This document shows positions 7,476-23,108 of a stretch of DNA of 64,000 nt, piece by piece. A program made the position numbers and the translations under genes. Position 1 is the first letter of the stretch. The number at the start of each line of letters is the position of its first letter. This DNA comes from Escherichia phage C6. The stretch lies in sequence record MW679410.1, one strand, 5' to 3'. Under the pieces are notes generated by a model. It was not told where the DNA came from. It saw only the letters and a program-made list of their open reading frames with translations, and did no database searches.

Positions 7476-7865
7476 TTAACCACTCTGTGAGAGCTGGATT
7501 CTAATTTGCTCTAATGTATCAGGGTCATCAACGATACTAAACTGAACGGTCACGATAATCGAGTTATCATCGTACACAGGTGTCACACCTACAGCCAGGG
7601 CAGAAATTCTAGGTTCGAAGTTCCGCACAGCGGAAACTATATTACGCTTAATAGTATCCGTGATTAATGGGGTGATATTCTCAAACAATTGGTTACTGAT
7701 GTCGCAACCAAATTCCGGCATAAAAGGGCGTGAACCTTTGCGAGTAGTAATAATGCCTAACAAACTATTTTTTACTGCACGAGCGCCTGTAGCTTTAGCG
7801 ACGTCTCTATTCCAAGACGTCCTCATTTCAGGGTCTAAATCCGAATACATTTTATTGATATTCAT
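7476..7865 (-). CDS. 25: baseplate wedge protein gp25
   Basis: 129 aa; MNINKMYSDLDPEM...LLGIITTRKGSRPF matches T4 gp25. Confidence 0.95.
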   Translation of the reverse strand: MNINKMYSDLDPEMRTSWNRDVAKATGARAVKNSLLGIITTRKGSRPFMPEFGCDISNQLFENITPLITDTIKRNIVSAVRNFEPRISALAVGVTPVYDDNSIIVTVQFSIVDDPDTLEQIRIQLSQSG

Positions 7866-8488
7866 TACATCACCTTAAAGAACTCTTTAAGTCCCTCAAT
7901 AACGTGGACGGTATGTTCACCACATTCACAAGAAATAGGTATGGCCAAAATAGGCTTAGGGGCGACTAGGGCATCATAAACTTCTTTTATATCTTTTTCT
8001 GTTATCACAGAATAAAGGTCATCAAGTTCCGCATCGCTTAAATCGGAAAGAAAAAGCTTTTCGCCTGCAGAAGTTAAAATATAATCGATACACCCTGCGA
8101 CCATCATAGCCCTATTTTTATCTTCAAAGAGTTTAGGGTATCTGAAAACAATTTTAAAGTTGCCAAAGTCTTTAATAACATCAGGCTCTTTACCTAATGT
8201 TGCGCGAGTTAGTGTCATAGGGACAACCTGTGAGCGACCACAACTACAAACCCACTCACGTTCTATATTCACTTCAGCTAATGAATGGGCCCACAGGTTT
8301 ATCACCAGGAGCTCAGATTCTTGCTTGTTTAAATCACGAGCATCTGTGCAATTGGAAATGAGTTCATTGATAAAGGACTCTATTCTGCCTTCTAATTTAG
8401 CTTGGAGCAAGTCCTTATACTCTCTGAGGGTAAATGCTCTGCATTTTATGGTTTTGTTTTTAATTTTTACGTCAAAAGTATAATTCAT
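7865..8488 (-). CDS. 26: baseplate hub protein gp26
   Basis: 207 aa; position and size as T4 gp26; stop overlaps gene 25 start. Confidence 0.85.
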   Translation of the reverse strand: MNYTFDVKIKNKTIKCRAFTLREYKDLLQAKLEGRIESFINELISNCTDARDLNKQESELLVINLWAHSLAEVNIEREWVCSCGRSQVVPMTLTRATLGKEPDVIKDFGNFKIVFRYPKLFEDKNRAMMVAGCIDYILTSAGEKLFLSDLSDAELDDLYSVITEKDIKEVYDALVAPKPILAIPISCECGEHTVHVIEGLKEFFKVM

Positions 8489-8506
8489 TGTCTTCTCCTT
8501 TAAGCT

Positions 8507-8518
8507 TATTTATAAATA
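8507..8518. promoter_or_regulatory. divergent late promoters (TATTTATAAATA) for gene 26 (minus) and gene 51 (plus)
   Basis: Overlapping TATAAATA octamers on both strands in the 26/51 intergenic region. Confidence 0.55.
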
Positions 8519-8538
8519 CATCAATAAGAGGACACCCT

Positions 8539-9291
8539 ATGGCTAATATAGTACGTTGTGAAATGCCTGATGGAGTCCACCGATTTAAACCTTTTACAGT
8601 AGCTGATTATCGTGATTTTATTTTGATTCGAAATGACATGAATAATAAATCACCTGAAGAGCAAAAACAAATTTTAGATGAGTTACTGGAAGAATACTTC
8701 GGTGAATATCCTATGTCATGGCGCCCGTATATGTTCATTGAACTTTACACGTCATCACTCGGCAAGACCAAAATTCCTATCCGATACACTTGCAGTAAGT
8801 GCGAAAAGGATAGACAAGTTTTATTCAATTTGAAACAGGCCAAGTTAGATAATCCCACAATTGAAGTGGCGGGCTTGAAGCTAACATTCAAATTTCCGGA
8901 AATAGAATATCCAGACAAATCTGAATTGATTTTGAACACCCTCCAAACCGTAGAAGATGAAAACGGAAAATATAATTGGACTGACCTTTCTGAAGAAGAC
9001 CAATTAGCCGTAATAGATGCTATAGACTTATCCACTTTAGAGGATATAGTCAAACAAACCAGCCCTATTAATTTCGAACTCAAATATGGATGTTGTAATC
9101 GTAGAACGATTGCGTATACCGATATTTTAGAGGTGTTTAAGCTTATAGTCAATCCGGATGAGATATTTTTATTTTACCAAATAAACCATTTATTGGTAAA
9201 GAACAATTATTCATTAGAAAGCATTATGCAGATGATTCCAATCGAACGCGGTATTGCTTTGTCTTTGGTTGAAAAGGACCTTAAGAAATGA
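8539..9291 (+). CDS. 51: baseplate hub assembly catalyst gp51
   Basis: Track ORF begins at a TTG; true start taken as ATG ([12 protein letters not shown]...) after AAGAGG; about 250 aa as T4 gp51. Confidence 0.9.
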
Positions 9292-10457
9292 GTTCAAAAA
9301 CTATGCAACGTGAAGGCTTTCCTAATATCAGTATACGCCTTTACGAAGATTATGACGCCTGGTTAGAGCATCGTTTTGTTGAACTAGGCGCTACATTTAC
9401 TACTCTAACAATGCGAGATGGACTTTACGGTAGTAATGAAGGGTTGCTCCAGTTTTATGATGCAAAGAACCTTCATACTAAAATGGATGGCGAACAGATT
9501 ATTCAAATTTCTGTTAAGAATGCTAACTCCGAGCGTACCCAATCAAGAATTTATGGAAGTAAACACTTTGCTGTAGGAGTGGATTCGAAGGGCGACAATA
9601 TCATAACAATACAACTCGCCCCAATCCACTTTTTAGAAAATCTTAAATTCGGGCGTATGTTCTTCCCTAGTGTCCAAGAAACATTAACTGAAATGATTGG
9701 TGTTATTTACCAAGACCGTCCACTTCTTGCACCTCCATTGAACGGGATAAACGTTTATGTTCCTAATGTTCCTTGGTGTGATTCAATGGACCGTTATATG
9801 GAATTTGTACGAGAAGTAGGTATGGCCGTTGAATCTGATAAATTTGTATTTGTCTGGGAAGATATAGATGGTATTTCTATCATGGACTACGAATTTATGG
9901 TTAATCAAGAGCCAATTAATTTTGTGGTAGGTGAGCCTCGTTTAATAGGCCAATACGTCCAAGATATGGACACTCCTATCGCATTTGATTTTGAATGGTT
10001 AACTAAAGCCAACCAGCATTCCAGAAAACCATATGAAAACGCTACTGTATACGCACACTCTTTCTTAGACAAAAACGCCACACGAATTACTTTTGGTGAT
10101 GGGCAAAACAGTATATTGGTTTCTCGCTCTGGTGGATATTCTGATTATACCTACCGAAATGGATTTGAAGAAGCCGATAGATTAGTTACTATGGCCCAAT
10201 ACGATGGCTATGCTCATTGTAAGGTATACGGTAACTTTGAACTAACTCCAGGCGATAAGATTAATTTCTATGACCCTAAAAACCAATTCCAATACGATTT
10301 TTATGTAGACGAAGTTATTCATGAAGTGAGTAACAATACATCAATTACAAACCTTTATATGTTTACTAATGGTAAGCCTATTAAGATTGAAGAACCACCG
10401 AAGGTTAAAAATGAACTTAAAACTGATACTCCCGATCAAGAAAATAACGCTGGGTGA
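9288..10457 (+). CDS. 27: baseplate hub protein gp27
   Basis: 389 aa; strong similarity to T4 gp27; start overlaps gene 51 stop. Confidence 0.95.
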
Positions 10458-14741: not shown

Positions 14742-15032
14742 TTATTTACGGAACGAAATGAAACCTGCTGTGGTCATTAGCGGTTGCTTTTTAACAAACA
14801 CCGTAACTGAAATAGGAGCTTCAGATTCGAGTTGTCCTGTCACTACACCGTTAAAAATGTTTTCGGTTTGTTCTGGATGAGAAAAATTCTCAACAGGTCG
14901 GATATCAAACTGTTTGTCTTCACCGAAAACTCGACGTAATTCATTACCCACTGCACTGTCAAACTCTTCAGAAGCAGGGATAACGTTTTCAACTACCAGT
15001 TCTTGACCATTAAAACGGAATGCAGATTTCAT
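14742..15032 (-). CDS. hypothetical protein downstream of the alt array
   Basis: 96-aa track ORF with GAGGAG SD; occupies the alt.-x position. Confidence 0.5.
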   Translation of the reverse strand: MKSAFRFNGQELVVENVIPASEEFDSAVGNELRRVFGEDKQFDIRPVENFSHPEQTENIFNGVVTGQLESEAPISVTVFVKKQPLMTTAGFISFRK

Positions 15033-15089
15033 AATGTTCTCCTCATGTTTGTGTAAGGTAATAGTACCACATCCTTGTGGTGTTGTAAA

Positions 15090-17213
15090 CTACATTTTGA
15101 ATTTATTTGGCAGAGCAGAGATATCCAAAGATGCAGCAAGGATTTCCATAGCTTCGTTGCTTTCAGAAACGGATTCATTAACCAAGAATTGACTGAATCC
15201 ATGCATCAGGCGAACTTCACCAGTTTCCATCAAATGGTCGCCATCGTAAACAGATTCGCTGAGCTCTGAAGGAGGTGTTACTGTAGCTTCCATAAGATAT
15301 TTGTGAGATACCCTATCATTCATAGCAAAAGCCGCTACTTTATCAACCTTCAACAATAATCCACGCGGAAGGATAATTTCTGCTTCTTCGGCATATTCTG
15401 TAAGGTCACCAGGAGCGATAACTTTAACTGCTTCAGCACCTCGAATAACCATACCAATTTCAGCAATTCTATCCGCAGGACCTTCAGGTGCAATTGGATT
15501 ACCAAACTCGTCTTCTTCCCATTCTACCTCTTCGTCATCGACTTCACCCACATCAGATGAACTACCACTAGCCAATTTAAACAACTCATCAGCGGAGGAT
15601 AAAGAACCTTCACCACCAACAAAAACGGCTTGGTTGTCGAGGGCCATATAATTTTTACCAAATTCACCAAAGATGTTAGGCTTTAATGAGGCTGACACAA
15701 AGTTCTTAAAGTAAAATGTTTTGTTATCGATATTATGACGCAGAATTTTGTATGGCAAATCCTGACCACGATACAAAATAGTACCCTTAGGAAGTTTAAT
15801 ACCCTTAGTAAATGCTGAGTCTAAATCCTTAATCAATTTAATAGCCGTTGTATTGTTTTCGGATTCAGGTTTACCTAAAAGGAACAAGTTCATAGGAGCA
15901 TATTCAGCTGCGCAATATTCAATAATAGCATTGCTTTCGTCTTTGGTTAGGTCCTTAGGTTTAATGAGCTCACCTGAATAAGCATATGCATCACTAATAG
16001 AATCGTTAATTAGTTTATAAACGGCTTCCATAGCGAAAGCAATTCGAGAGGCCTTTTCTGAAGGGGAGCCTTTAAAACGGGTACTCAGGTTATTAACAAT
16101 TTTCTTAATAATATCCAGACTATTGGTTGTATTGATTTGCGAAAGACCGCTTAAAAGTCTATCGACTTCTGTATTAAAAAATGCCATATTATTAGAGTAA
16201 ATTTCAAACCCTTGTTTATCTCTATTAGCATAATTTAGTTTAAATTTACTATCAGTCATTAAAGCGTGCGTGAGAGCAATGGTGTATCTAAAGTTGGCAA
16301 GGTCCTCGCTCTTAGATTTAAACTGAGAAGCCTGGCGCATTTTGGTAATAGCACCTTTTTTAAAGTTCTGACTAATCTGTTCAATACCTTCATTCTCAGG
16401 GCCTTCAGCCGTGTGAACCGGTACAGAAGCTTCAAACTCGTTATAAACCTGCAATTCTTTAGGGGACAAAGTTTCAGGCTCAGCAGTAGAATACTGCGCG
16501 GCTGCTGCCATACGACGCGAAATCTTAGTACGAGTAATGACAGCCTTATCAGTACGTTTTTCTTCAACTTGTGCAATAGATGCCGCTACGGCTTCGACCT
16601 TACTTACGGCCTGGCCGGTTTTCTTAGAAACATACACTTCGCCAACTTTAGACTCAACTTTAGTATAAAGATCGGCATTAATTTCAGGCATACCCTTGAT
16701 ATCTTCAATATTAGCCCCGCGACGTACTAAAAGAACGTAGGTATGTTTTCCGCTGAATTGGAACATGTCGTCAACAACTTTAAACTTACCACCGGTACGG
16801 GCCATAGCCAAACGAGCTAATACGCGCTGAACGGTAGGGCCTTTACCTTTCATTTTCTTAGTAGGGAAACGGAATAAAACCGCGTCCATTTTAAGTTTGT
16901 TTATTTGTTCATATATGGTATCGAAAATGGTGTTCAGTGTACCGAGTGGATCGGTACCCAAACCACCCTTGAGTTCTGCCGGAGCGCCTTTAGCAGATAA
17001 ACTCATTAAGATAACATGGACGTACTTATCGCCCGCCTTAACCATCTTAATAGCGTCGCCTTCAGACGCATAAGATACCATACGTGCTACTAAATTGTCA
17101 TTACCAGGAGCATGTACCGCAAAAATCTGCGGTACGCCTGAGCCAGGTTTAAGATTTGTTACTGGGTAATTTTTTTTATCACTTTTATCAAAAACTTCGT
17201 TTAAATTTTCCAT
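15090..17213 (-). CDS. Alt-like ADP-ribosyltransferase paralog 1 (divergent middle region)
   Basis: 707 aa; N-terminal ~230 aa near-identical to paralogs 2 and 3 and similar to T4 Alt; C-terminal YRGQ / FVSASL / EAEIILPRG motifs; poly-acidic insert. Confidence 0.85.
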   Translation of the reverse strand: MENLNEVFDKSDKKNYPVTNLKPGSGVPQIFAVHAPGNDNLVARMVSYASEGDAIKMVKAGDKYVHVILMSLSAKGAPAELKGGLGTDPLGTLNTIFDTIYEQINKLKMDAVLFRFPTKKMKGKGPTVQRVLARLAMARTGGKFKVVDDMFQFSGKHTYVLLVRRGANIEDIKGMPEINADLYTKVESKVGEVYVSKKTGQAVSKVEAVAASIAQVEEKRTDKAVITRTKISRRMAAAAQYSTAEPETLSPKELQVYNEFEASVPVHTAEGPENEGIEQISQNFKKGAITKMRQASQFKSKSEDLANFRYTIALTHALMTDSKFKLNYANRDKQGFEIYSNNMAFFNTEVDRLLSGLSQINTTNSLDIIKKIVNNLSTRFKGSPSEKASRIAFAMEAVYKLINDSISDAYAYSGELIKPKDLTKDESNAIIEYCAAEYAPMNLFLLGKPESENNTTAIKLIKDLDSAFTKGIKLPKGTILYRGQDLPYKILRHNIDNKTFYFKNFVSASLKPNIFGEFGKNYMALDNQAVFVGGEGSLSSADELFKLASGSSSDVGEVDDEEVEWEEDEFGNPIAPEGPADRIAEIGMVIRGAEAVKVIAPGDLTEYAEEAEIILPRGLLLKVDKVAAFAMNDRVSHKYLMEATVTPPSELSESVYDGDHLMETGEVRLMHGFSQFLVNESVSESNEAMEILAASLDISALPNKFKM

Positions 17214-17216
17214 TAT

Positions 17217-19262
17217 TTACCCTTGGGTGAATTTTTCTGGGATTTCGTCAAAATTAATACATGAAGCCAAAAGAGGCATTATATCCACCTTGGTCGATTT
17301 GACAAATGAATCAAAAGACACAGGGTTGTCGGTCTCTGTTTCTACGCCTTGGTAAACAACCAATTCGCCGGTTTCCATCAATGCATCACCATCATAGATA
17401 ACCGCATTTTCTGCTAGTTGGTCTGTGGTCTGGATATCAGCTTCCAATAATTTGGTGTTGTAGTTTCCTTTATATGAGGCATCTGTAATTTTAGTAATCT
17501 TAACAGTAGTTCCACGTGGAAGAATAACCTCTTGTTCTGTTGGAGAACCTGACAATTCACCGGGCACAATTACGTTAATAGAGTCTGCACCGGAAATTTT
17601 CCAACCGATGTTCATCATTGTATTTTCGGAACTCGTCAGCATACTTGGAAGAACAATTTCATTATCGCCTTGGAAAGATGTCCCAACGCGATAGTCCTGA
17701 TGAACTGCGGCCATTGCGACGTTTGATACCCAGCCGCCAAAGATAATCGGCTTAAGGGACGTTGATACATAGTTCCTGAAATAAAACAATTTTGAGTGTT
17801 TGATTTTATCAAAAGTGTTAACATTTAAATATTGACCACGCCAAAGTGTAATATCAGGTGGCAATTTATGGCCAATTTCAAATGCCGCATCCATATCATT
17901 AATTACTTCAATTACGCGATAACTATCAATAAATTCTGCATCCTCTTCATAATAATTACCCAACAAATAATTATTAACATCGGTATAATATTGGCCGCAA
18001 TAAGAAGAAATAGCCTCACGCTGCTCATACTCAAATCGATTATCGCTATAACTGGCTGTAAAATGCATAACACTTTCTGACGCTTCATTAGCAAAATCGG
18101 TAACAGCAGCACTTATACGTTGAGCATACTCTTGTTCCCAAAGCTCTGCCGCATATTCGGCCGCATCCATATTAGGAGGAGCCTCATTCATTTTTCTTTC
18201 GATAAATGCAGCTTTGCGAAGGTTAAGAACCTCTGCACATGATTCGGCAAAAATCTGCATCTGCTTCATACTGCCGACAGGAGCACGTTTAAGTTCACGA
18301 TGCATACGGTTAAAAATTGGGTCAGAGTCTTCGACTCGAATTTCTTCTTTCCAAACACCGTTTGCTCGCATAGCCATATCTGCCGCGCGCATACGCTCCA
18401 TAGTATTCGTTTCAGAAGGTTGAATAAAAATTTCTAGTTCTTCATAATCGTCGATAAGTTCCGCTGTTGCTGGGGCACTAAATTTTGATGCCTCTGCATC
18501 AATCTCATTCCAACCTTCCGGAACTTCATCTCGAGGAGAATACTGGGCTGCGGCTACAGCACGCCTAGAAATCTTGGTAGTAGTAATAACGGCCTTATCC
18601 GTACGTTTTTCTTCGACTGCCGCTATACTAGCAGATAGTGCTTCTATTTTGGTTACCGATTGGCCTGTTTTCTTGGATACATAAACCTCACCAACTTTAG
18701 ACTCAACCTTAGTGTAAAGGTCTGCATCAATTTCAGGCATACCTTTTATGTCCTCAATATTAGCTTGTTTACGAACCAGTAAAACGTATGTATGTTTGCC
18801 TGTAAATTGATACATATCATCGACAACTTTAAACTTGCCGCCAGTACGAGCCATCGCCAAACGTGCCAATACACGTTGAACAGTAGGACCCTTACCTTTC
18901 ATTTTCTTGGTAGGGAACCGGAAAAGAACTGCATCCATACGAAGAGCTTTAACTTGTTCGTATACAGTATCGAAAATGGTGTTCAGTGTACCAAGTGGGT
19001 CAGAACCTAACCCGCCTTTCAACTCGGCTGGGGTACCCTTAGCAGACAAACTCATCAAAATAACATGAACATATTTGTCGCCCGGCTTAACCATTTTAAT
19101 AGCGTCTCCTTGAGACGCATAAGATACCATACGAGCAACCAGATTATCATTACCTGGTGCTTGGATAGAGAAAATCTGTGGAATACCGGAACCCGGTTTA
19201 AGATTTGTTACTGGATAGTTTTTAGCGGAATCACTATCAAAAACCTCATTTAAATTTTCCAT
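17217..19262 (-). CDS. Alt-like ADP-ribosyltransferase paralog 2
   Basis: 681 aa; conserved N-terminal module; WRGQ / YVSTSL / EQEVILPRG motifs. Confidence 0.85.
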   Translation of the reverse strand: MENLNEVFDSDSAKNYPVTNLKPGSGIPQIFSIQAPGNDNLVARMVSYASQGDAIKMVKPGDKYVHVILMSLSAKGTPAELKGGLGSDPLGTLNTIFDTVYEQVKALRMDAVLFRFPTKKMKGKGPTVQRVLARLAMARTGGKFKVVDDMYQFTGKHTYVLLVRKQANIEDIKGMPEIDADLYTKVESKVGEVYVSKKTGQSVTKIEALSASIAAVEEKRTDKAVITTTKISRRAVAAAQYSPRDEVPEGWNEIDAEASKFSAPATAELIDDYEELEIFIQPSETNTMERMRAADMAMRANGVWKEEIRVEDSDPIFNRMHRELKRAPVGSMKQMQIFAESCAEVLNLRKAAFIERKMNEAPPNMDAAEYAAELWEQEYAQRISAAVTDFANEASESVMHFTASYSDNRFEYEQREAISSYCGQYYTDVNNYLLGNYYEEDAEFIDSYRVIEVINDMDAAFEIGHKLPPDITLWRGQYLNVNTFDKIKHSKLFYFRNYVSTSLKPIIFGGWVSNVAMAAVHQDYRVGTSFQGDNEIVLPSMLTSSENTMMNIGWKISGADSINVIVPGELSGSPTEQEVILPRGTTVKITKITDASYKGNYNTKLLEADIQTTDQLAENAVIYDGDALMETGELVVYQGVETETDNPVSFDSFVKSTKVDIMPLLASCINFDEIPEKFTQG

Positions 19263-19265
19263 TAT

Positions 19266-21350
19266 TTACCCTTGGATGAATTTTTCTGGGATGTCATAGA
19301 GGTCTATGCATGAAGCCAAAAGAGGCAGTACATCAAACCGTGTAGATTTAACAAATGAATCAAAAGATACAGGGCTTTCGGAAGTATCGAAGTCATCTTG
19401 ATATACGACCAACTCGCCGGTTTCCATTAGTACGTCACCATCATATACCACAGATTCTTGAAGCTCATCTGTTGTCATAACTTCAGCTTGGATGAGTTTT
19501 GTATTACTAGATGTTGTTCCATCATTATTAGAAGCATCTGTTATTTTATTAACTTTGACCATTAATCCACGCGGTAGAATAACTTCGGCTTCAGTTGCTA
19601 TTCCGAGATTTCCTGGATATACTACATTAACTTTATGAGCCCCATCAATAGCCCATCCTATTTGAACTTTAACGTAATCAGGATTTTCCTTATACGCCCT
19701 TATTTCATTAGGGTTAATAGTTATTCCTTCTTCATTTTTATCGACTGTCAATTCATTACGAACTTCCGGTTCTAAAAGACCGATACCAGCGTGTGTAACA
19801 CCAAATCGTCCAAAAATGATAGGGGTTAAAGAAGTAGATACAAAATTTCTGAAATAGAACACTTTATTTTTAACTAGTGCTTCGTATATAGGAGCAGTCA
19901 TACTCTGTGCACGATAAACTGTAATGCCTTCTGGTATACGGTCACCATTTTCAAAAGCAGAATCCAAATTATTAACTGCAGATTCGATATCTTTTTCGCT
20001 CATAACCTCATAGTTCTGAGGATTATAACGTCCTAAAAGAAGATTATTTATGTCTGTATATCCTGAACCACAATATTCTCTGATGCCGCGCTTTTGTGAT
20101 GGGGTATATTTAGAGCCCTCACGAGCAATAGTAATATCGACCATAATACCACCACCCACACCAGCAAAACTATATACACGTTTTTTAATGAACTTGGTCT
20201 TGGCGGCTTTCCACTTCGCATCGGTCAATTCATTCCAGAGGTCGTCAGGTTGGCCTTTACGAGTTTTGTTATGCCGGGCCAGCCATTCACCTTTGTATTC
20301 TTCGAAAACGGTATTAATAGCAGAGGCATATTTTTCTAGAGCTTTAACAGATGTCAAAGGTTCGTTTTTGATGGCCGTAAGAATTTTATCTTTAATTTTC
20401 TCTTGGATTTCACCTATACCGTGAAGAGGAAACATTTTATAATCGTAATGCAATTCTTCAGCAGTGCCTTCAGCCACTATATTAGCAACCTTATTTTTAG
20501 CCGCAGGAGAATTGTTATTAGTAACCATTTCCTGAGCCTCAGGGATTAATGGAACTGTTGCTGGTTTATTAAAATCCGCTGCAGTAGCTTCATATTTCTT
20601 AAACAATTCACTTTCATTACGATAAGATTCCAATGATTGGCTTGCTGCAATAGCACGTCGCGAAATCTTAGTCTTGGTTATAACCATTTTATCAGTGCGA
20701 CGTTCTTCAACCTTAGCAATACTGCCGGCAATAGCAGTTTCTTTAGTAACCTGCACACCTTCTTTTTTGGAAATATAAACTTCACCGACATCAGAATCTA
20801 CCTTAGTGTATAATTCGGAATTAATTCCTGGCATACCTTTGATATCTTCGATATCAGCTTGTTTACGAACTACTAAGATGTAAGTATGTTTACCGGTAAA
20901 TTGGTACATAGCCGGAACTACTTTAAAACGTCCACCAGTTTTCTGTGCTACCAAACGTTGGATAATCCGTTGGACAATAGGTCCTTGTCCTTTCATTTTC
21001 TTGGTAGGAAAACGGAACATCACGGCATCCATACGAAGCTTTTTAACTTGGTCATAAACCACATCAAAAATAGTATTAATCGCATCTACGGGAGTAGGGC
21101 CAAGGCCACCCTTAAGTTCGGCCGGAGTACCTTTAGCTGAAAGGCTCATAAGGATAACGTGGGCATATTTATCACCCATTTTAACTTGTTTAATAGCATC
21201 ACCTTCAGAAGCGTAGGATACCATACGCGCGACCAATTGGGATTCAACGTCTCCAATTTTCCAAATCTGGGGTACTTTAAGTTTAGGGTTCAAGTTTACT
21301 GTAGGCAGAGTGCCTTCGGACTCAAACACTTCATTTAATTGTTCGGTCAT
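19266..21350 (-). CDS. alt: Alt ADP-ribosyltransferase (closest to T4 Alt)
   Basis: 694 aa; collinear similarity to T4 Alt over full length, including KYTPSQKRGIREYCGSGYTDINN, FVSTSL and EAEVILPRGLMVKVNKITDAS. Confidence 0.9.
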   Translation of the reverse strand: MTEQLNEVFESEGTLPTVNLNPKLKVPQIWKIGDVESQLVARMVSYASEGDAIKQVKMGDKYAHVILMSLSAKGTPAELKGGLGPTPVDAINTIFDVVYDQVKKLRMDAVMFRFPTKKMKGQGPIVQRIIQRLVAQKTGGRFKVVPAMYQFTGKHTYILVVRKQADIEDIKGMPGINSELYTKVDSDVGEVYISKKEGVQVTKETAIAGSIAKVEERRTDKMVITKTKISRRAIAASQSLESYRNESELFKKYEATAADFNKPATVPLIPEAQEMVTNNNSPAAKNKVANIVAEGTAEELHYDYKMFPLHGIGEIQEKIKDKILTAIKNEPLTSVKALEKYASAINTVFEEYKGEWLARHNKTRKGQPDDLWNELTDAKWKAAKTKFIKKRVYSFAGVGGGIMVDITIAREGSKYTPSQKRGIREYCGSGYTDINNLLLGRYNPQNYEVMSEKDIESAVNNLDSAFENGDRIPEGITVYRAQSMTAPIYEALVKNKVFYFRNFVSTSLTPIIFGRFGVTHAGIGLLEPEVRNELTVDKNEEGITINPNEIRAYKENPDYVKVQIGWAIDGAHKVNVVYPGNLGIATEAEVILPRGLMVKVNKITDASNNDGTTSSNTKLIQAEVMTTDELQESVVYDGDVLMETGELVVYQDDFDTSESPVSFDSFVKSTRFDVLPLLASCIDLYDIPEKFIQG

Positions 21351-21388
21351 AATAATTCCTCTTTAATAACCTTATTTATGCCAGAAAA

Positions 21389-21400
21389 GGCCCGAAGGCC
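21389..21400 (-). terminator. hairpin ggccCGAAggcc (UUCG loop on minus transcript) upstream of alt
   Basis: Palindromic stem followed by T-run on the minus strand. Confidence 0.4.
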
Positions 21401-21583
21401 TTAAAGTGGTAGCAACGTACGGTATACTTCAAATTTAGGACCCTTTTCATAGCGGTCGAAATTATCTTTAAAATCGGCGAACGCGATTTCATTTTCAAAT
21501 TCAAGGACAATTTGGGACACCGCAGTGGAGACATCGCCACCTTCTTTATATCCAATAACCACGGTTTCTAAATAAACTTTCAT
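21401..21583 (-). CDS. hypothetical small protein
   Basis: Track ORF 21401..21625 overlaps the ligase 3' end; internal ATG (MKVYLETVV...) just past the ligase stop gives 60 aa. Confidence 0.4.
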   Translation of the reverse strand: MKVYLETVVIGYKEGGDVSTAVSQIVLEFENEIAFADFKDNFDRYEKGPKFEVYRTLLPL

Positions 21584-21584
21584 A

Positions 21585-23108
21585 TTATAACCCAGTTTGA
21601 GACCAATCACCGAATACATCTTCAAATGTATCAGCTTCTGTTTTATCGAAACGCCAACCTTTAATAATTGGAAGGAAAATACCTACGGTATCAGTACGTC
21701 CTTTAGAATGAACCCAACCATTACATTCACAGTCGGCAATACGGCCAATCAATTTACCTTCACGAGCTTGTTTCATAAGAAGTTCACGGTCTAAATCAGG
21801 ACGGTCTTCCAATGGAATCAATACCTTTTTACCTGATTTATCTTTCTTATGGGTAGTATCTTTAAAGCCTGAACCACAGTCACTTGTAATTCGACGACAA
21901 CGTGATACCAACTCGACACCACCTAGTTTGTTAGGGTCCTTCGAGTGTTCATAATAACCTACCACTTCTAAAGCAATATCAATTACTTCTTTGAACTTGA
22001 TAAGATTCTTAGAACGGCGGTTTTCCCAGTAGGAGTCCATGTTCTTAAGGATAATACCTTCCAGGCCCTGGTCGACATATTTCTTATAAACGACTTTAGC
22101 TTCTTCAAGATTATTAACCCACTGGTTTTCGATAGCTTCAACACGCGTTGTACCATGCAATACGACATTATGAGCAACCATAAGTTCTAAGGCTGTAAAG
22201 CGTACATCATACTTATCGCCTTTAATTTTACCTTCGGAATATACGACATCCAATGGGACATAATCCCACGCCTGTAATACCATACCAGCGGCTTCGGTCG
22301 GAGTAATAGTTCCTTGAAGAGCCTTGTTAGCCAAGCCGTTTGACGTGGAACGATCGGCGACAGTTTGGAATTCCTTAGCCTTACTTAATTCAGGAAGTTC
22401 CTCATCAAACATACTAAACAAATCATTAGATGCTTTAGGTTCTACCTTAGGAGTATGGTAAACTAATTCGCCGTCAATCATAACACCATTAGGATGGCGT
22501 TGTCGAGCTTCTTCGGTCATGGTCATTAATTCAGCAGCCAAAAGATTAAGCCCTTGATATTCGTTACCACCACGAGTAAGGAATGTCACACCATCGTTAC
22601 GAACTTCAGCAAAACAACGAGCGCCATCAGCTTTTAATTGGGCAAACGCAGGCCATTTAATATTTTTCTTAATCAAAGCTTCATCATAAGAACTAGCCAA
22701 CATCTGCGGTTGTTCAGGGATTAAACCTTTCCAAACCTTGTTAGCAATAGAAATTGATGCACCACATTCAAGGTCACGCATCATTACACGACGTAATACC
22801 TCGGCATCTTGTCCCTTAGCATCAGCAATGATTTGAGCCAGTTCTTCAATAGCTGCATTACCCGTAATCTTACGTGTGGCTAATGTGAATTCAGCGAAAT
22901 CAAGAAGGTCTTCAAGAGTAATCATACCAAAGGATTGAGACGTAAATCCAGGTTCCGGCCACTTTTTAATGCCATAGTTCAAACGACGAGTATAAGCCAT
23001 ACGATAAACACGTTTCAGAAGCTCATTGTCCTTTTCACGAGCAATAATAGCTTCTTTAGCTTTAGTAGAATCAATAGCAGCAATTTCGTTTAAAATATCT
23101 AAAATCAT
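21585..23108 (-). CDS. 30: ATP-dependent DNA ligase
   Basis: 507 aa; MILDILNEIAAIDSTKAKEA..., adenylation motif region FAQLKADGARCFAEVR (active-site Lys), strong match to T4 ligase. Confidence 0.95.
   Translation of the reverse strand: MILDILNEIAAIDSTKAKEAIIAREKDNELLKRVYRMAYTRRLNYGIKKWPEPGFTSQSFGMITLEDLLDFAEFTLATRKITGNAAIEELAQIIADAKGQDAEVLRRVMMRDLECGASISIANKVWKGLIPEQPQMLASSYDEALIKKNIKWPAFAQLKADGARCFAEVRNDGVTFLTRGGNEYQGLNLLAAELMTMTEEARQRHPNGVMIDGELVYHTPKVEPKASNDLFSMFDEELPELSKAKEFQTVADRSTSNGLANKALQGTITPTEAAGMVLQAWDYVPLDVVYSEGKIKGDKYDVRFTALELMVAHNVVLHGTTRVEAIENQWVNNLEEAKVVYKKYVDQGLEGIILKNMDSYWENRRSKNLIKFKEVIDIALEVVGYYEHSKDPNKLGGVELVSRCRRITSDCGSGFKDTTHKKDKSGKKVLIPLEDRPDLDRELLMKQAREGKLIGRIADCECNGWVHSKGRTDTVGIFLPIIKGWRFDKTEADTFEDVFGDWSQTGL

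Follow-up and report, generated by a model that had tools for sequence, protein, structure and literature searches.

A tandem alt paralog array in a Dhakavirus-type T4-like phage: protein-constrained direct repeats as probable seams of array rebuilding

Introduction

The Alt protein of phage T4 (gpAlt) is a prohead-core protein, present in about 40 copies, from which gp21 cleaves an N-terminal peptide (PMC9958956). T4 has only one alt gene, flanked by genes 30 and 54, in contrast to the three tandem paralogs of the phage described here. Tandem Alt-like paralogs have already been described in JS98, Bp7, Ac42 and ZZ1, with two in a Tequatrovirus (PMC4177764, PMC13600099); JS98 and Bp7 are congeners of the present phage, and these reports note the duplication of alt only. 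Our literature searches found no account of recombination within alt arrays, of chimeric genes joining the 5' end of one paralog (here B) to another (here A), of a ladder of switch points, of a recombining three-copy set or of body swaps between genera.

Rearrangement of plastic regions at repeats has been described as PeSL shuffling, in which short or imperfect repeats serve as crossover sites for gene gain, loss and replacement. This process depends on the efficient recombination system of the phage, for which less than 50 bp of homology is enough (PMC2839356, PMC4122927); small patches below 50 bp suffice for T4-type recombination (Singer et al. 1982, as cited in PMC2839356).

The alt locus and its gene products

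The window analyzed here is a 64,000-nucleotide stretch of Escherichia phage C6 (MW679410.1), a Dhakavirus-type T4-like phage. In the ORF map, three head-to-tail ORFs on the minus strand make up the alt array (window coordinates throughout):

15090-17213, minus strand: alt A, ORF of 707 aa, last in the array; PF03496, E 2.5e-17
17217-19262, minus strand: alt B, ORF of 681 aa, middle of the array; PF03496, E 6.6e-21
19266-21350, minus strand: alt C, ORF of 694 aa, first in the array; PF03496, E 4.9e-36

The PF03496 ADP-ribosyltransferase (ART) domain scores above its gathering cut-off of 23.4 in each (63, 75 and 124 bits for A, B and C), and the Alt/VIP2-type R-S-E motifs, YR(G/A), S(T/A)S and E-x-E(V/I)ILPRG, are present in the A/B/C alignment. 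The N-domain falls in PHROG 802, "Alt-like RNA polymerase ADP-ribosyltransferase" (E 1.7e-123, profile positions 2-242). The array is flanked by DNA ligase (gp30)/alt.1 and alt.-3/gp54, a gene order that matches the annotation in JS10, fDHCT2, KIT01 and Bp7; the sole ORF downstream is alt.-3 (96 aa, PHROG 1739). The body of alt C is 77-78% identical in amino acid sequence to Tequatrovirus alt genes, and alt C is the ortholog of T4 Alt. The A, B and C bodies are mutually 27-36% aa identical, and the A/B-type N-domain shares only ∼43% aa identity with those of the Tequatroviruses.

The likeness to T4 gpAlt comprises the same locus, the same ART domain and an N-terminal module in PHROG 802. By this analogy, the three genes would encode virion-packaged ADP-ribosyltransferases, with the N-terminal module probably serving to bring the protein into the prohead core and to allow the prohead protease to process it. 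All three paralogs open with M(T)E(N/Q)LNE-VF, and the L-N-E motif at residues 4-7 is presumably compatible with the T4 prohead protease site. An AF2 model was of moderate confidence only (pLDDT 64.5) with weak fold matches; a PDB sequence search gave no match for the N-domain and weak matches only for the ART domain, and a homologous-protein search with the N-domain returned a single protein (P0001).

Anatomy of the repeats

The conserved 5' thirds of the alt genes had been predicted to form three direct repeats about 2 kb apart. Such repeats are present, ∼730 bp each, and the predicted coordinates were accurate:

16485-17213, minus strand: repeat copy 1, codons 1-243 of A
18534-19262, minus strand: repeat copy 2, codons 1-243 of B
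20620-21350, minus strand: repeat copy 3, codons 1-243 of C; the conserved N-terminal domain

The copies lie on the same strand with start-to-start distances of 2049 and 2094 nt (repeat families D1 and D2). Self-blastn of 15000-21400 aligned 16485-17542 with 18534-19597 (75.4% over 1073 nt, 736 bits), 18549-19141 with 20643-21235 (70.1% over 599 nt, E 3e-72) and 16503-17093 with 20643-21236 (69.1% over 599 nt, E 3e-60). These matches are far above chance. The repeat shared by A and B extends past the 5' third, through the gene junction and into the last ∼120-330 nt of the upstream gene. Further features at the junctions and ahead of the array are:

19266-19597, minus strand: 3' end of C, where the junction-spanning repeat continues upstream, paired with 17217-17542 in the 1073-nt blastn match
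17217-17542, minus strand: 3' end of B, counterpart of the 3' end of C in the same repeat
17200-17226, minus strand: 27-nt block CCAAGGGTAAATAATGGAAAATTTAAA, with its twin at 19249-19275, identical at both gene junctions
21373-21400, minus strand: upstream signals of the array as predicted from sequence, a hairpin GGCCTTCGGGCC with a T run, then the late-promoter-like CATAAATA

Over their last 54 codons the B and C tails are 74% identical in nucleotides, with a dS of 0.9 (84% in repeat family D3). Within the 27-nt block lie the final codons, which include an SD-like AAGGG, followed by the TAA stop, the 3-nt spacer found between alt genes and the ATG of the next gene. Signals such as the hairpin and late-promoter-like element are absent between the three genes, the only such element being that upstream of C, and no exact T4 late promoter TATAAATA occurs in 15000-21700. 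The alt genes would probably share a single transcript running from C through B to A, and each downstream gene is predicted to have its ribosome-binding site within the last codons of the gene preceding it.

Protein constraint and nucleotide identity

The identity among the repeats had been judged by eye at 75-85%, a range that holds for A and B only (77.4% nt and 87% aa over 242 codons); the C copy, at the predicted coordinates, is 64.2% identical to A and 65.8% to B. Expected nucleotide identities were derived from the protein sequences and the codon usage of the window. The A/B pair exceeded its expectation of 73.2% by 4.2 points (z=3.5), and the pairs with C exceeded theirs by 1.4-1.6 points (A/C, 64.2% observed and 62.8% expected, z=1.2; B/C, 65.8% and 64.2%, z=1.5). 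The same codon was used at conserved residues 106 times in A/B against 84.8 expected (z=3.1), 71 times in A/C against 63.5 and 74 times in B/C against 66.3 (z=1.3 each). Synonymous divergence between N-domains is saturated (dS 1.8-2.4), with dN of 0.10-0.31 and dN/dS of ∼0.05-0.13. The longest exact A/B runs measure 27 nt (at the gene junction), 26 nt (inside the repeat), 21 and 20 nt, and those with C measure 14 nt (A/C) and 20 nt (B/C); exact runs at the junction reach 41-58 nt in some relatives.

The DNA similarity of the repeats is almost wholly a by-product of protein conservation, and that of the C copy to the others stays within the level that protein constraint gives. Nearly all of it would be due to strong purifying selection, which keeps the N-terminal module alike as protein. 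Similarity confined to the protein level had been named as the outcome that would speak against the repeats; extended blastn matches do exist, yet the identity behind them is mostly of protein-level origin. Direct orientation and regular spacing, as looked for in a recombination substrate, are present, and extended identity beyond coding constraint with long uninterrupted matches (∼50 bp) is absent. Because the copies are homeologous (77% and ∼65%) and exact runs in the window do not exceed 27 nt, the description of the repeats as ideal substrates for recombination was too strong. Recent tandem duplication was likewise rejected: dS is saturated and the bodies are only 27-36% aa identical, so that no copy is a recent duplicate. 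The paralogs appear to be old or imported.

Array variation among relatives

The comparison of alt copy number suggested by the original prediction was run across a set of 23 related Dhakavirus loci. Close relatives vary, with tblastn over the Dhakavirus records giving 2 or 3 alt copies, and the array types over the 23 loci were C-A, C-B-A, D-C-A, C-E and C-F. JS10-type two-copy arrays are without exactly one 2049-bp B unit, a polymorphism by whole period. B is missing from every two-copy and D-C-A relative; A is present in 21 of the 23 loci, the exceptions being VR5 and Bp7. Within this one genus, two N-domain types carry at least seven kinds of body (A, B, C, C2, D, E and F). Trees of the array flanks disagree with each other and with array type.

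No record among the 23 loci and other records examined held both B and D, and no four-copy array was found in the phage collection, IMG/VR or the JGI metagenomes. Matches in the IMG/VR search were QL01 and three Gapriverviruses only, and the sole metagenome match, a gene present as a single copy, joins an N-domain of Gaprivervirus type to a B-like body.

Chimeric genes and crossover points

In nearly all B-less genomes the A gene has a B-type 5' end. Chimeras were detected using informative-site maps followed by breakpoint Fisher tests, and seven close relatives yielded five clean B-to-A switch points (Fisher p 1e-63 to 1e-76 each):

gene nt -27 to +15, window ∼17199-17240, minus strand: switch point
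gene nt 129-151, window 17063-17085, minus strand: switch point
gene nt 195-204, window 17010-17019, minus strand: switch point
gene nt 264-270, window 16944-16950, minus strand: switch point
gene nt 354-372, window 16842-16860, minus strand: switch point

With QL01 as parent, the junction crossover of LQ5 and ABTNLS3 maps to the 27-nt block at 17200-17226. The A gene of WG01 matches QL01 B at 340/340 positions over nt 1-340 and MX01 A at 395/396 over nt 365-760. Flanks of other chimeras were similarly close, with 195/195 and 538/541 positions identical on the B and A sides in PSD2002, 259/264 and 471/472 in IME281, and 129/129 in a flank of PSD9; the JS10 A gene also looks chimeric. In these chimeras, B and A alleles still in circulation are joined almost perfectly. 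Patterns are shared between independent records (E33 with PSD9, LQ5 with ABTNLS3), and an assembly artefact was rejected on the strength of these identical chimeras. Short conversion-like patches were seen at nt 23-48 of the QL01 and UGJNEcP3 A genes, at nt 310-322 of most B genes and at several places in AnYang. Breakpoints showed no significant preference for the longest stretches of A/B identity (P = 0.21 for the repeat as a whole, P = 0.37 for nt up to 400).

On sequence grounds, these chimeras look like the product expected from an out-of-register crossover that deletes one 2049-bp period. Alternatively, a cross between a C-B-A and a B-less array, begun in the homologous C and resolved in the B5'/A5' stretch, would give the same chimeric product. 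Since all five switch points fall within the first 372 of 730 nt, they fit such a cross at least as well. A more divergent two-copy group (JS10, JS98, NC-G and dhaeg) and the E and F genes have a shared N-domain that resembles B as far as ∼nt 220-310 and is mixed beyond that point; it may represent an independent allele lineage rather than a recombinant.

Chimeric genes with breakpoints inside the repeats were found for A/B and not for C: the 5' thirds of the 23 genomes contain no C/A, C/B or D/C chimera, and no B/C chimera was found in the 3' tails among the loci compared. Reciprocal duplication products were not found either, with no gene joining an A 5' end to a B body in the 23 loci, the phage collection, IMG/VR or the JGI metagenomes. 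Unequal recombination had been put forward for both expansion and contraction of the array. Contraction is backed by the B-less arrays with B5'/A chimeras, but only for that pair, as no such exchange involves C. Expansion by unequal crossover is unsupported, because the bodies have diverged (27-36% aa identity), the A-5'/B-body gene and four-copy arrays are missing from these searches, and the B body looks imported.

Body cassettes and their seams

The C and C2 alleles are at least 90% identical up to ∼nt 760 and 30-70% identical beyond, and the C 5' third appears to be the left arm of an allelic C/C2 body swap. Alt B is a mosaic. Its N-domain (nt 1 to ∼710) is of the A/B type, its body (∼nt 715-1925) resembles that of Gaprivervirus altb, and its last ∼120 nt form a tail like that of C. 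Compared with SP18 altb, identity is 36-58% across the N-domain, rises to 68-96% over the body and falls to 56% at the tail. Outside Dhakavirus, a B-like body is always found on a different N-domain, 41% identical in amino acids. The B body, 70-96% identical in nucleotides to Gaprivervirus altb, thus looks imported, and the new members B and D look imported rather than duplicated. Overall, body seams lie at ∼nt 710-760 and ∼120-180 nt ahead of the stop.

Proposed history of the array

From this comparison of finished genomes, we consider it probable that the repeats are protein-constrained N-domains of old or imported alt paralogs, and that the module together with the tail marks the seams along which the array has been rebuilt. 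The conserved module and the short conserved 3' tail would serve as seams for the homologous-recombination system of the phage. Body cassettes (linker plus ART domain) would be swapped between these seams, even across genera. In a second type of event, B and A (77%) would undergo homeologous out-of-register crossovers and short conversion patches, giving rise to B-less arrays and to an A gene that starts with B sequence. The C copy (∼65%) would join only in-register allelic exchange.

One could instead regard the repeats as simply the DNA image of a protein domain, with no role in rearranging the array, and with copy number changing through illegitimate recombination or through replacement of the whole locus via the flanking core genes. 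Identities within 1.4-4.2 points of the codon-usage expectation, saturated dS and exact runs of at most 27 nt agree with this; nothing at the C copy contradicts it, and the flank trees show that recombination is common outside the array too. For the A/B pair, however, it is already contradicted by the chimeras, whose five switch points in the first 372 nt are bordered on each side by near-100% identity to extant alleles. The indel between two- and three-copy arrays is also exactly one 2049-nt period, and body-allele boundaries coincide with the N-domain end and the tail start; we regard this account as improbable. A young and dynamic array, with frequent exchange among three near-identical repeats and heterogeneous stocks, would be in line with direct repeats of regular period, relatives with 2 or 3 copies and the existence of contraction-type chimeras. 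We hold it to be very improbable, given bodies 27-36% aa identical, saturated dS, a C copy that is only ∼65% identical and never chimeric, B and D genes that look imported, and searches of phages, IMG/VR and metagenomes that gave neither an A5'/B-body product nor a four-copy array.

It is also conceivable, if somewhat unlikely, that the 1.06-kb junction-spanning repeat was made when a foreign Gaprivervirus-like altb body was spliced into a C-A array. Crossovers at the N-domain end and the tail start on two genome copies would duplicate the intervening segment, and the repeat of upstream tail, spacer and N-domain would be the scar of a cassette capture, later acting as a poor substrate for deletion. 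The composition of B (an N-domain like that of A, a body like that of SP18 altb and a tail like that of C, meeting at ∼nt 710 and ∼nt 1925) speaks for such an origin, as do an A/B repeat that spans the gene junction and recurs after exactly 2049 nt, and a B-like body that outside Dhakavirus always accompanies a different N-domain (41% aa). However, the repeat copies are now 75% identical with saturated N-domain dS (1.8), so the event would have to be old or its parents already divergent; no intermediate was found, and an old tandem duplication followed by body replacement could give the same pattern.

Comparison with known systems

The original finding as first worded is ordinary, in that paralogs with a common conserved domain resemble direct repeats, and the alt array is an ordinary paralog array with a well-documented recombination seam. 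Its interest lies in a natural record of homeologous recombination in a T4-like phage, with five mapped crossovers between 77%-identical sequences and both parental alleles in circulation. The seam also explains why the number and type of injected Alt effectors differ among close therapeutic or candidate coliphages, and it marks the Alt N-terminal module as an autonomous, exchangeable unit. It can therefore be tested whether the module acts as a packaging signal and whether different ART bodies have different host targets.

PeSLs (Arbiol et al. 2010) are non-coding promoter and stem-loop cassettes beside ORFans, unlike the alt repeats, which are coding and lie in genes set only 3 nt apart; a non-coding promoter with stem-loop flanking a mobile gene is absent from the alt array. 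Non-allelic recombination and gene conversion in tandem families bear a likeness in their direct repeats, period-sized deletions, chimeric junction genes and conversion patches. In contrast to tandem multigene families, the alt array has homeologous repeats (77%) in which no exact run exceeds 27 nt; the products seen are of the contraction type only, and the members are ancient or imported, without recent duplicates.

Polymorphic toxins such as Rhs and CDI combine a conserved N-terminal delivery part with a swappable C-terminal effector. The alt genes resemble them in a conserved N-module, a hypervariable effector and recombination at the module boundary, also between genera; as judged from allele comparisons, the effector parts appear to be interchangeable and swapped at that boundary. 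It is possible, and we offer it tentatively, that the T-even alt locus is a cassette-exchange system for injected effectors, with the N-module and the C-terminal tail as built-in recombination arms. Phages would pick up, exchange and lose ART "warheads" inside a genus and across genera, in the manner of polymorphic toxin loci; the tail would also carry the ribosome-binding site of the next gene, and the time for which an extra warhead lasts before looping out would depend on how far neighboring N-domain copies have diverged. Three differences from polymorphic toxins stand out: immunity genes and orphan cassettes were not seen here, the variable parts in alt all remain ART domains from the same family, and the exchange also involves a short C-terminal tail that is conserved.

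The alt Array and Its Repeated 5′ Domain

Three tandem genes, transcribed in the order C, B, A, lie head-to-tail within 15090–21350 of the window, flanked by gp54/alt.-3 and alt.1/DNA ligase:

15090–17213, minus strand, alt A (ORF, 707 aa)
17217–19262, minus strand, alt B (ORF, 681 aa)
19266–21350, minus strand, alt C (ORF, 694 aa)
17200–17226 and 19249–19275, 27-nt block CCAAGGGTAAATAATGGAAAATTTAAA, identical at both gene junctions

The window's genus is the T4-like Dhakavirus (megablast over 6.4 kb: fDHCT2 97.5%, QL01 96.8%, MX01 96.2%), and these three related records annotate the genes as Alt-like RNA polymerase ADP-ribosyltransferases. The Pfam ART domain PF03496 scored above gathering in all three proteins, the R / S-x-S / E-x-E motifs were retained in the alignment, and residues 1–242 matched PHROG 802 (‘Alt-like’). 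The C body (the part after this N-domain) was 77–78% identical in amino acid sequence to Tequatrovirus alt genes, which makes C the ortholog of T4 alt. Each of the paralogs has M(T)E(N/Q)LNE-VF at its start; in T4, ∼40 copies of gpAlt reside in the prohead core, where the gp21 protease removes a small N-terminal peptide, and the protein is injected with the DNA (PMC9958956; PMC5512222). In Acinetobacter phage ZZ1 the N-domain forms an ORF of its own (PMC4177764). A metagenomic protein of 371 aa (P0001; precomputed Pfam family PF26846) carries an Alt N-domain 62% identical to that of A plus ∼130 residues, without an ART domain, and supports the N-domain as an autonomous module.

The original prediction described three direct repeats of ∼700 bp, ∼2 kb apart and 75–85% identical, formed by the 5′ thirds of these genes. 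A repeat search located the copies in register at spacings of 2049 and 2094 nt, and self-blastn of 15000–21400 recovered all three pairings: 16485–17542 vs 18534–19597 (75.4% over 1073 nt), 18549–19141 vs 20643–21235 (70.1% over 599 nt, E 3e-72) and 16503–17093 vs 20643–21236 (69.1% over 599 nt, E 3e-60). In codon alignments of the first 243 codons, only the A/B pair fell within the predicted range, whereas the C copy (20620–21350), the region originally singled out, reached only 64.2% and 65.8%. Expected identities were obtained by redrawing synonymous codons for both real proteins from the window's own codon usage.

Table. N-domain comparisons (codons 1–243): nt / aa identity; expected nt identity; z; dS; same-codon counts at conserved residues, observed vs expected; longest exact matches
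A/B: 77.4% / 87%; 73.2 ± 1.2%; 3.5; 1.8; 106 vs 84.8; 27 nt (junction) and 26 nt
A/C: 64.2% / 66%; 62.8%; 1.2; 2.2; 71 vs 63.5; 14 nt
B/C: 65.8% / 69%; 64.2%; 1.5; 2.4; 74 vs 66.3; 20 nt

Synonymous sites were saturated, with dN of 0.10–0.31 across pairs. Nucleotide similarity barely exceeds protein conservation: the outcome named in the original prediction as its refutation, likeness at the protein level alone, essentially applies to C and nearly applies to A/B, where a small excess remains. The repeats are in large part a DNA-level echo of protein-domain conservation; the original observation was real but overstated, and its interpretation partly right.

Past codon 243, nucleotide identity between paralogs drops to 35–54%. 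The A/B repeat is nonetheless not confined to the 5′ third: it crosses the gene boundary into the B and C tails, the last ∼120–330 nt of B resembling the end of C (74% identity over the final 54 codons; 84% in repeat family D3). Within the junction block an SD-like AAGGG occupies the final two codons of one gene; the TAA stop codon comes next, then a spacer of 3 nt and the ATG of the following gene, and both junctions read CCAAGGGTAAATAATG. This layout suggests translational coupling and would explain on functional grounds why the tail end is conserved. Upstream of alt C (21373–21400, minus strand), a terminator-like hairpin GGCCTTCGGGCC with a T run precedes CATAAATA, which differs from the T4 late promoter TATAAATA at a single position, and an SD AAAGAGGA; no hairpin or promoter-like signals occur between the A, B and C genes of the window.

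Array Types among Related Phages

The variation in alt copy number implied by a proposed expansion and contraction of the array was found, tblastn returning 2 or 3 N-domain copies in Dhakavirus records and 1–3 across 1201 T4-like records. For 23 Dhakavirus loci, each alt gene was typed on the part after codon 250.

Table. Array types in transcription order
C-B-A: window, fDHCT2, QL01, MX01, AnYang, LHE83
C-B-A with C body allele C2: UGJNEcP3, KIT01
C-A: JS10, IME281, IME341, NC-G, dhaeg
C-A with C2: JS98, vB_EcoM_005
D-C-A: WG01, E33, LQ5, PSD9, PSD2002, ABTNLS3, 04086
C2′-E: VR5
C-F: Bp7

Type B was carried by 8 distinct phages and type D by 7 others, none of them having both. The further body types are found in WG01 (D; 7808–9703 of locus L012, L-numbers denoting loci taken from related phage records), VR5 (E; L008, 8001–10049) and Bp7 (F; L021, 6501–8552). 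The D body, ∼58% identical in amino acids to SP18 alta, is at least 99.3% identical in its 7 phages, which suggests recent spread. In phage 04086 (D-C-A; L016, 10001–10810) the A gene is broken by frameshifts; its 177-kb record has only 148 annotated features, and assembly quality is probably responsible rather than a pseudogene. In Tequatrovirus records (T2, T6, RB68 and others) the N-domain matched two places in many genomes by tblastn, so that a second Alt-N-domain gene is common there too.

Neighbor-joining trees of the two flanks (the alt.-3/gp54 side and the alt.1/ligase side; 22 loci) agreed neither with one another nor with array type, and recombination around the alt locus is pervasive. 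In the downstream flank IME281 (C-A) groups with WG01, E33 and PSD9 (D-C-A); in the upstream flank WG01 and PSD9 cluster with MX01 (C-B-A).

Crossovers between the B and A Copies

In JS10 precisely the B unit is missing, and the downstream alt gene of this phage resembles window B over its initial ∼190 nt (94–98%) and window A thereafter. All genes were mapped at 164 A/B-informative sites of the N-domain and at ∼100 more within the 340 nt upstream of it. In B-less genomes the A gene has a B-type 5′ end and then switches cleanly to A-type, except in LQ5 and ABTNLS3, where it matches the QL01-type A allele and the switch sits in the junction block. Fisher p values for the individual B-to-A switches lay between 1e-63 and 1e-76, and on either side of a switch the sequence is nearly identical to a B or A allele still in circulation.

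Table. Switch points in A genes and matches to parental alleles
LQ5, ABTNLS3: junction block, nt −27..+15 (QL01 as parent)
E33, PSD9: nt 129–151; PSD9 129/129 vs window B
PSD2002: nt 195–204; 195/195 vs window B, 538/541 vs MX01 A
IME281: nt 264–270; 259/264 vs window B, 471/472 vs MX01 A
WG01: nt 354–372; nt 1–340 340/340 vs QL01 B, nt 365–760 395/396 vs MX01 A

These chimeras are the products of homeologous crossovers, recent and independent of one another, that joined the B and A repeat copies. Their structure (C tail, then a B-type 5′ end on an A body, with the B gene gone) matches that predicted for loss of one 2049-nt period. Short conversion-like patches also occur in three-copy genomes: A-gene nt 23–48 are B-type in QL01 and UGJNEcP3, nt 310–322 are A-type in most B genes, and AnYang has several.

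The chimeras prove crossing-over between B and A 5′ ends, not a change in copy number at each one. The same molecule would arise if a B-less phage were crossed with a C-B-A phage and the exchange began in the homologous C gene and was resolved in the homeologous stretch, and the position of all five switch points within the first 372 of 730 nt fits such an origin; concentration of breakpoints in the longest identity blocks was not significant (P 0.2–0.37). An N-domain that is B-like to ∼nt 220–310 and then mixed is common to the more distant two-copy phages and to the E and F genes; it may represent a separate allele lineage. The proposed recombination between repeats holds for the A/B pair, toward contraction or exchange. 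It does not extend to the C copy, since no C/A, C/B or D/C chimeric 5′ thirds occur in the genomes compared and C tails are C-type in every case, nor to expansion, as neither a 4-copy array nor the reciprocal product of a B/A crossover was found in relatives or searched collections.

Exchange of Body Cassettes

C2, carried by JS98, vB_EcoM_005, UGJNEcP3 and KIT01 (loci L004, L006, L011 and L017), is a highly divergent allele (∼55% aa) of the C body (window 19450–20590); the 5′ third and 3′ tail on either side of it are nearly identical. Genes with C2 are at least 90% identical to window C between 200 nt upstream and ∼nt 760, 30–70% from there to ∼nt 1900, and again at least 90% in the last ∼180 nt; the C 5′ third is thus the left arm of homology for an in-register exchange of bodies.

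The B body (window 17340–18550) matches altb of the Gaprivervirus SP18 (L024, 4871–6931) at 70–96% nt and 77% aa identity, whereas the N-domains share only 41% aa; altb of ∼30 other Gapriverviruses matches likewise at 70–96% nt. Identity to SP18 altb rises at ∼nt 710–745 and falls at ∼nt 1925, and together with the divergent N-domains this indicates that the effector part was transferred between genera, these positions being the seams. A metagenomic contig joins a Gaprivervirus-type N-domain to a B-like body. Window B is therefore a mosaic of A-like N-domain, imported body and C-like tail. This suggests, by inference only, that the 1.06-kb junction-spanning repeat is a scar left when a cassette was captured between two C-A genomes.

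Comparison with Known Systems

Duplications of alt have been reported in JS98, Bp7, Ac42 and ZZ1 (PMC4177764), as have paralog pairs in Tequatroviruses, one 2026 paper describing two Alt-like paralogs of 43% identity in one phage (PMC13600099); our literature search found no description of alt-array chimeras. In T4-type phages, modular shuffling at short repeats is established for non-coding PeSL cassettes, with recombination said to need <50 bp of homology (PMC2839356). Unlike PeSLs, in which the repeated unit is non-coding, the alt array has a coding repeat and abutting genes, and is therefore not a PeSL case. It is a well-documented new example of an already known kind of process.
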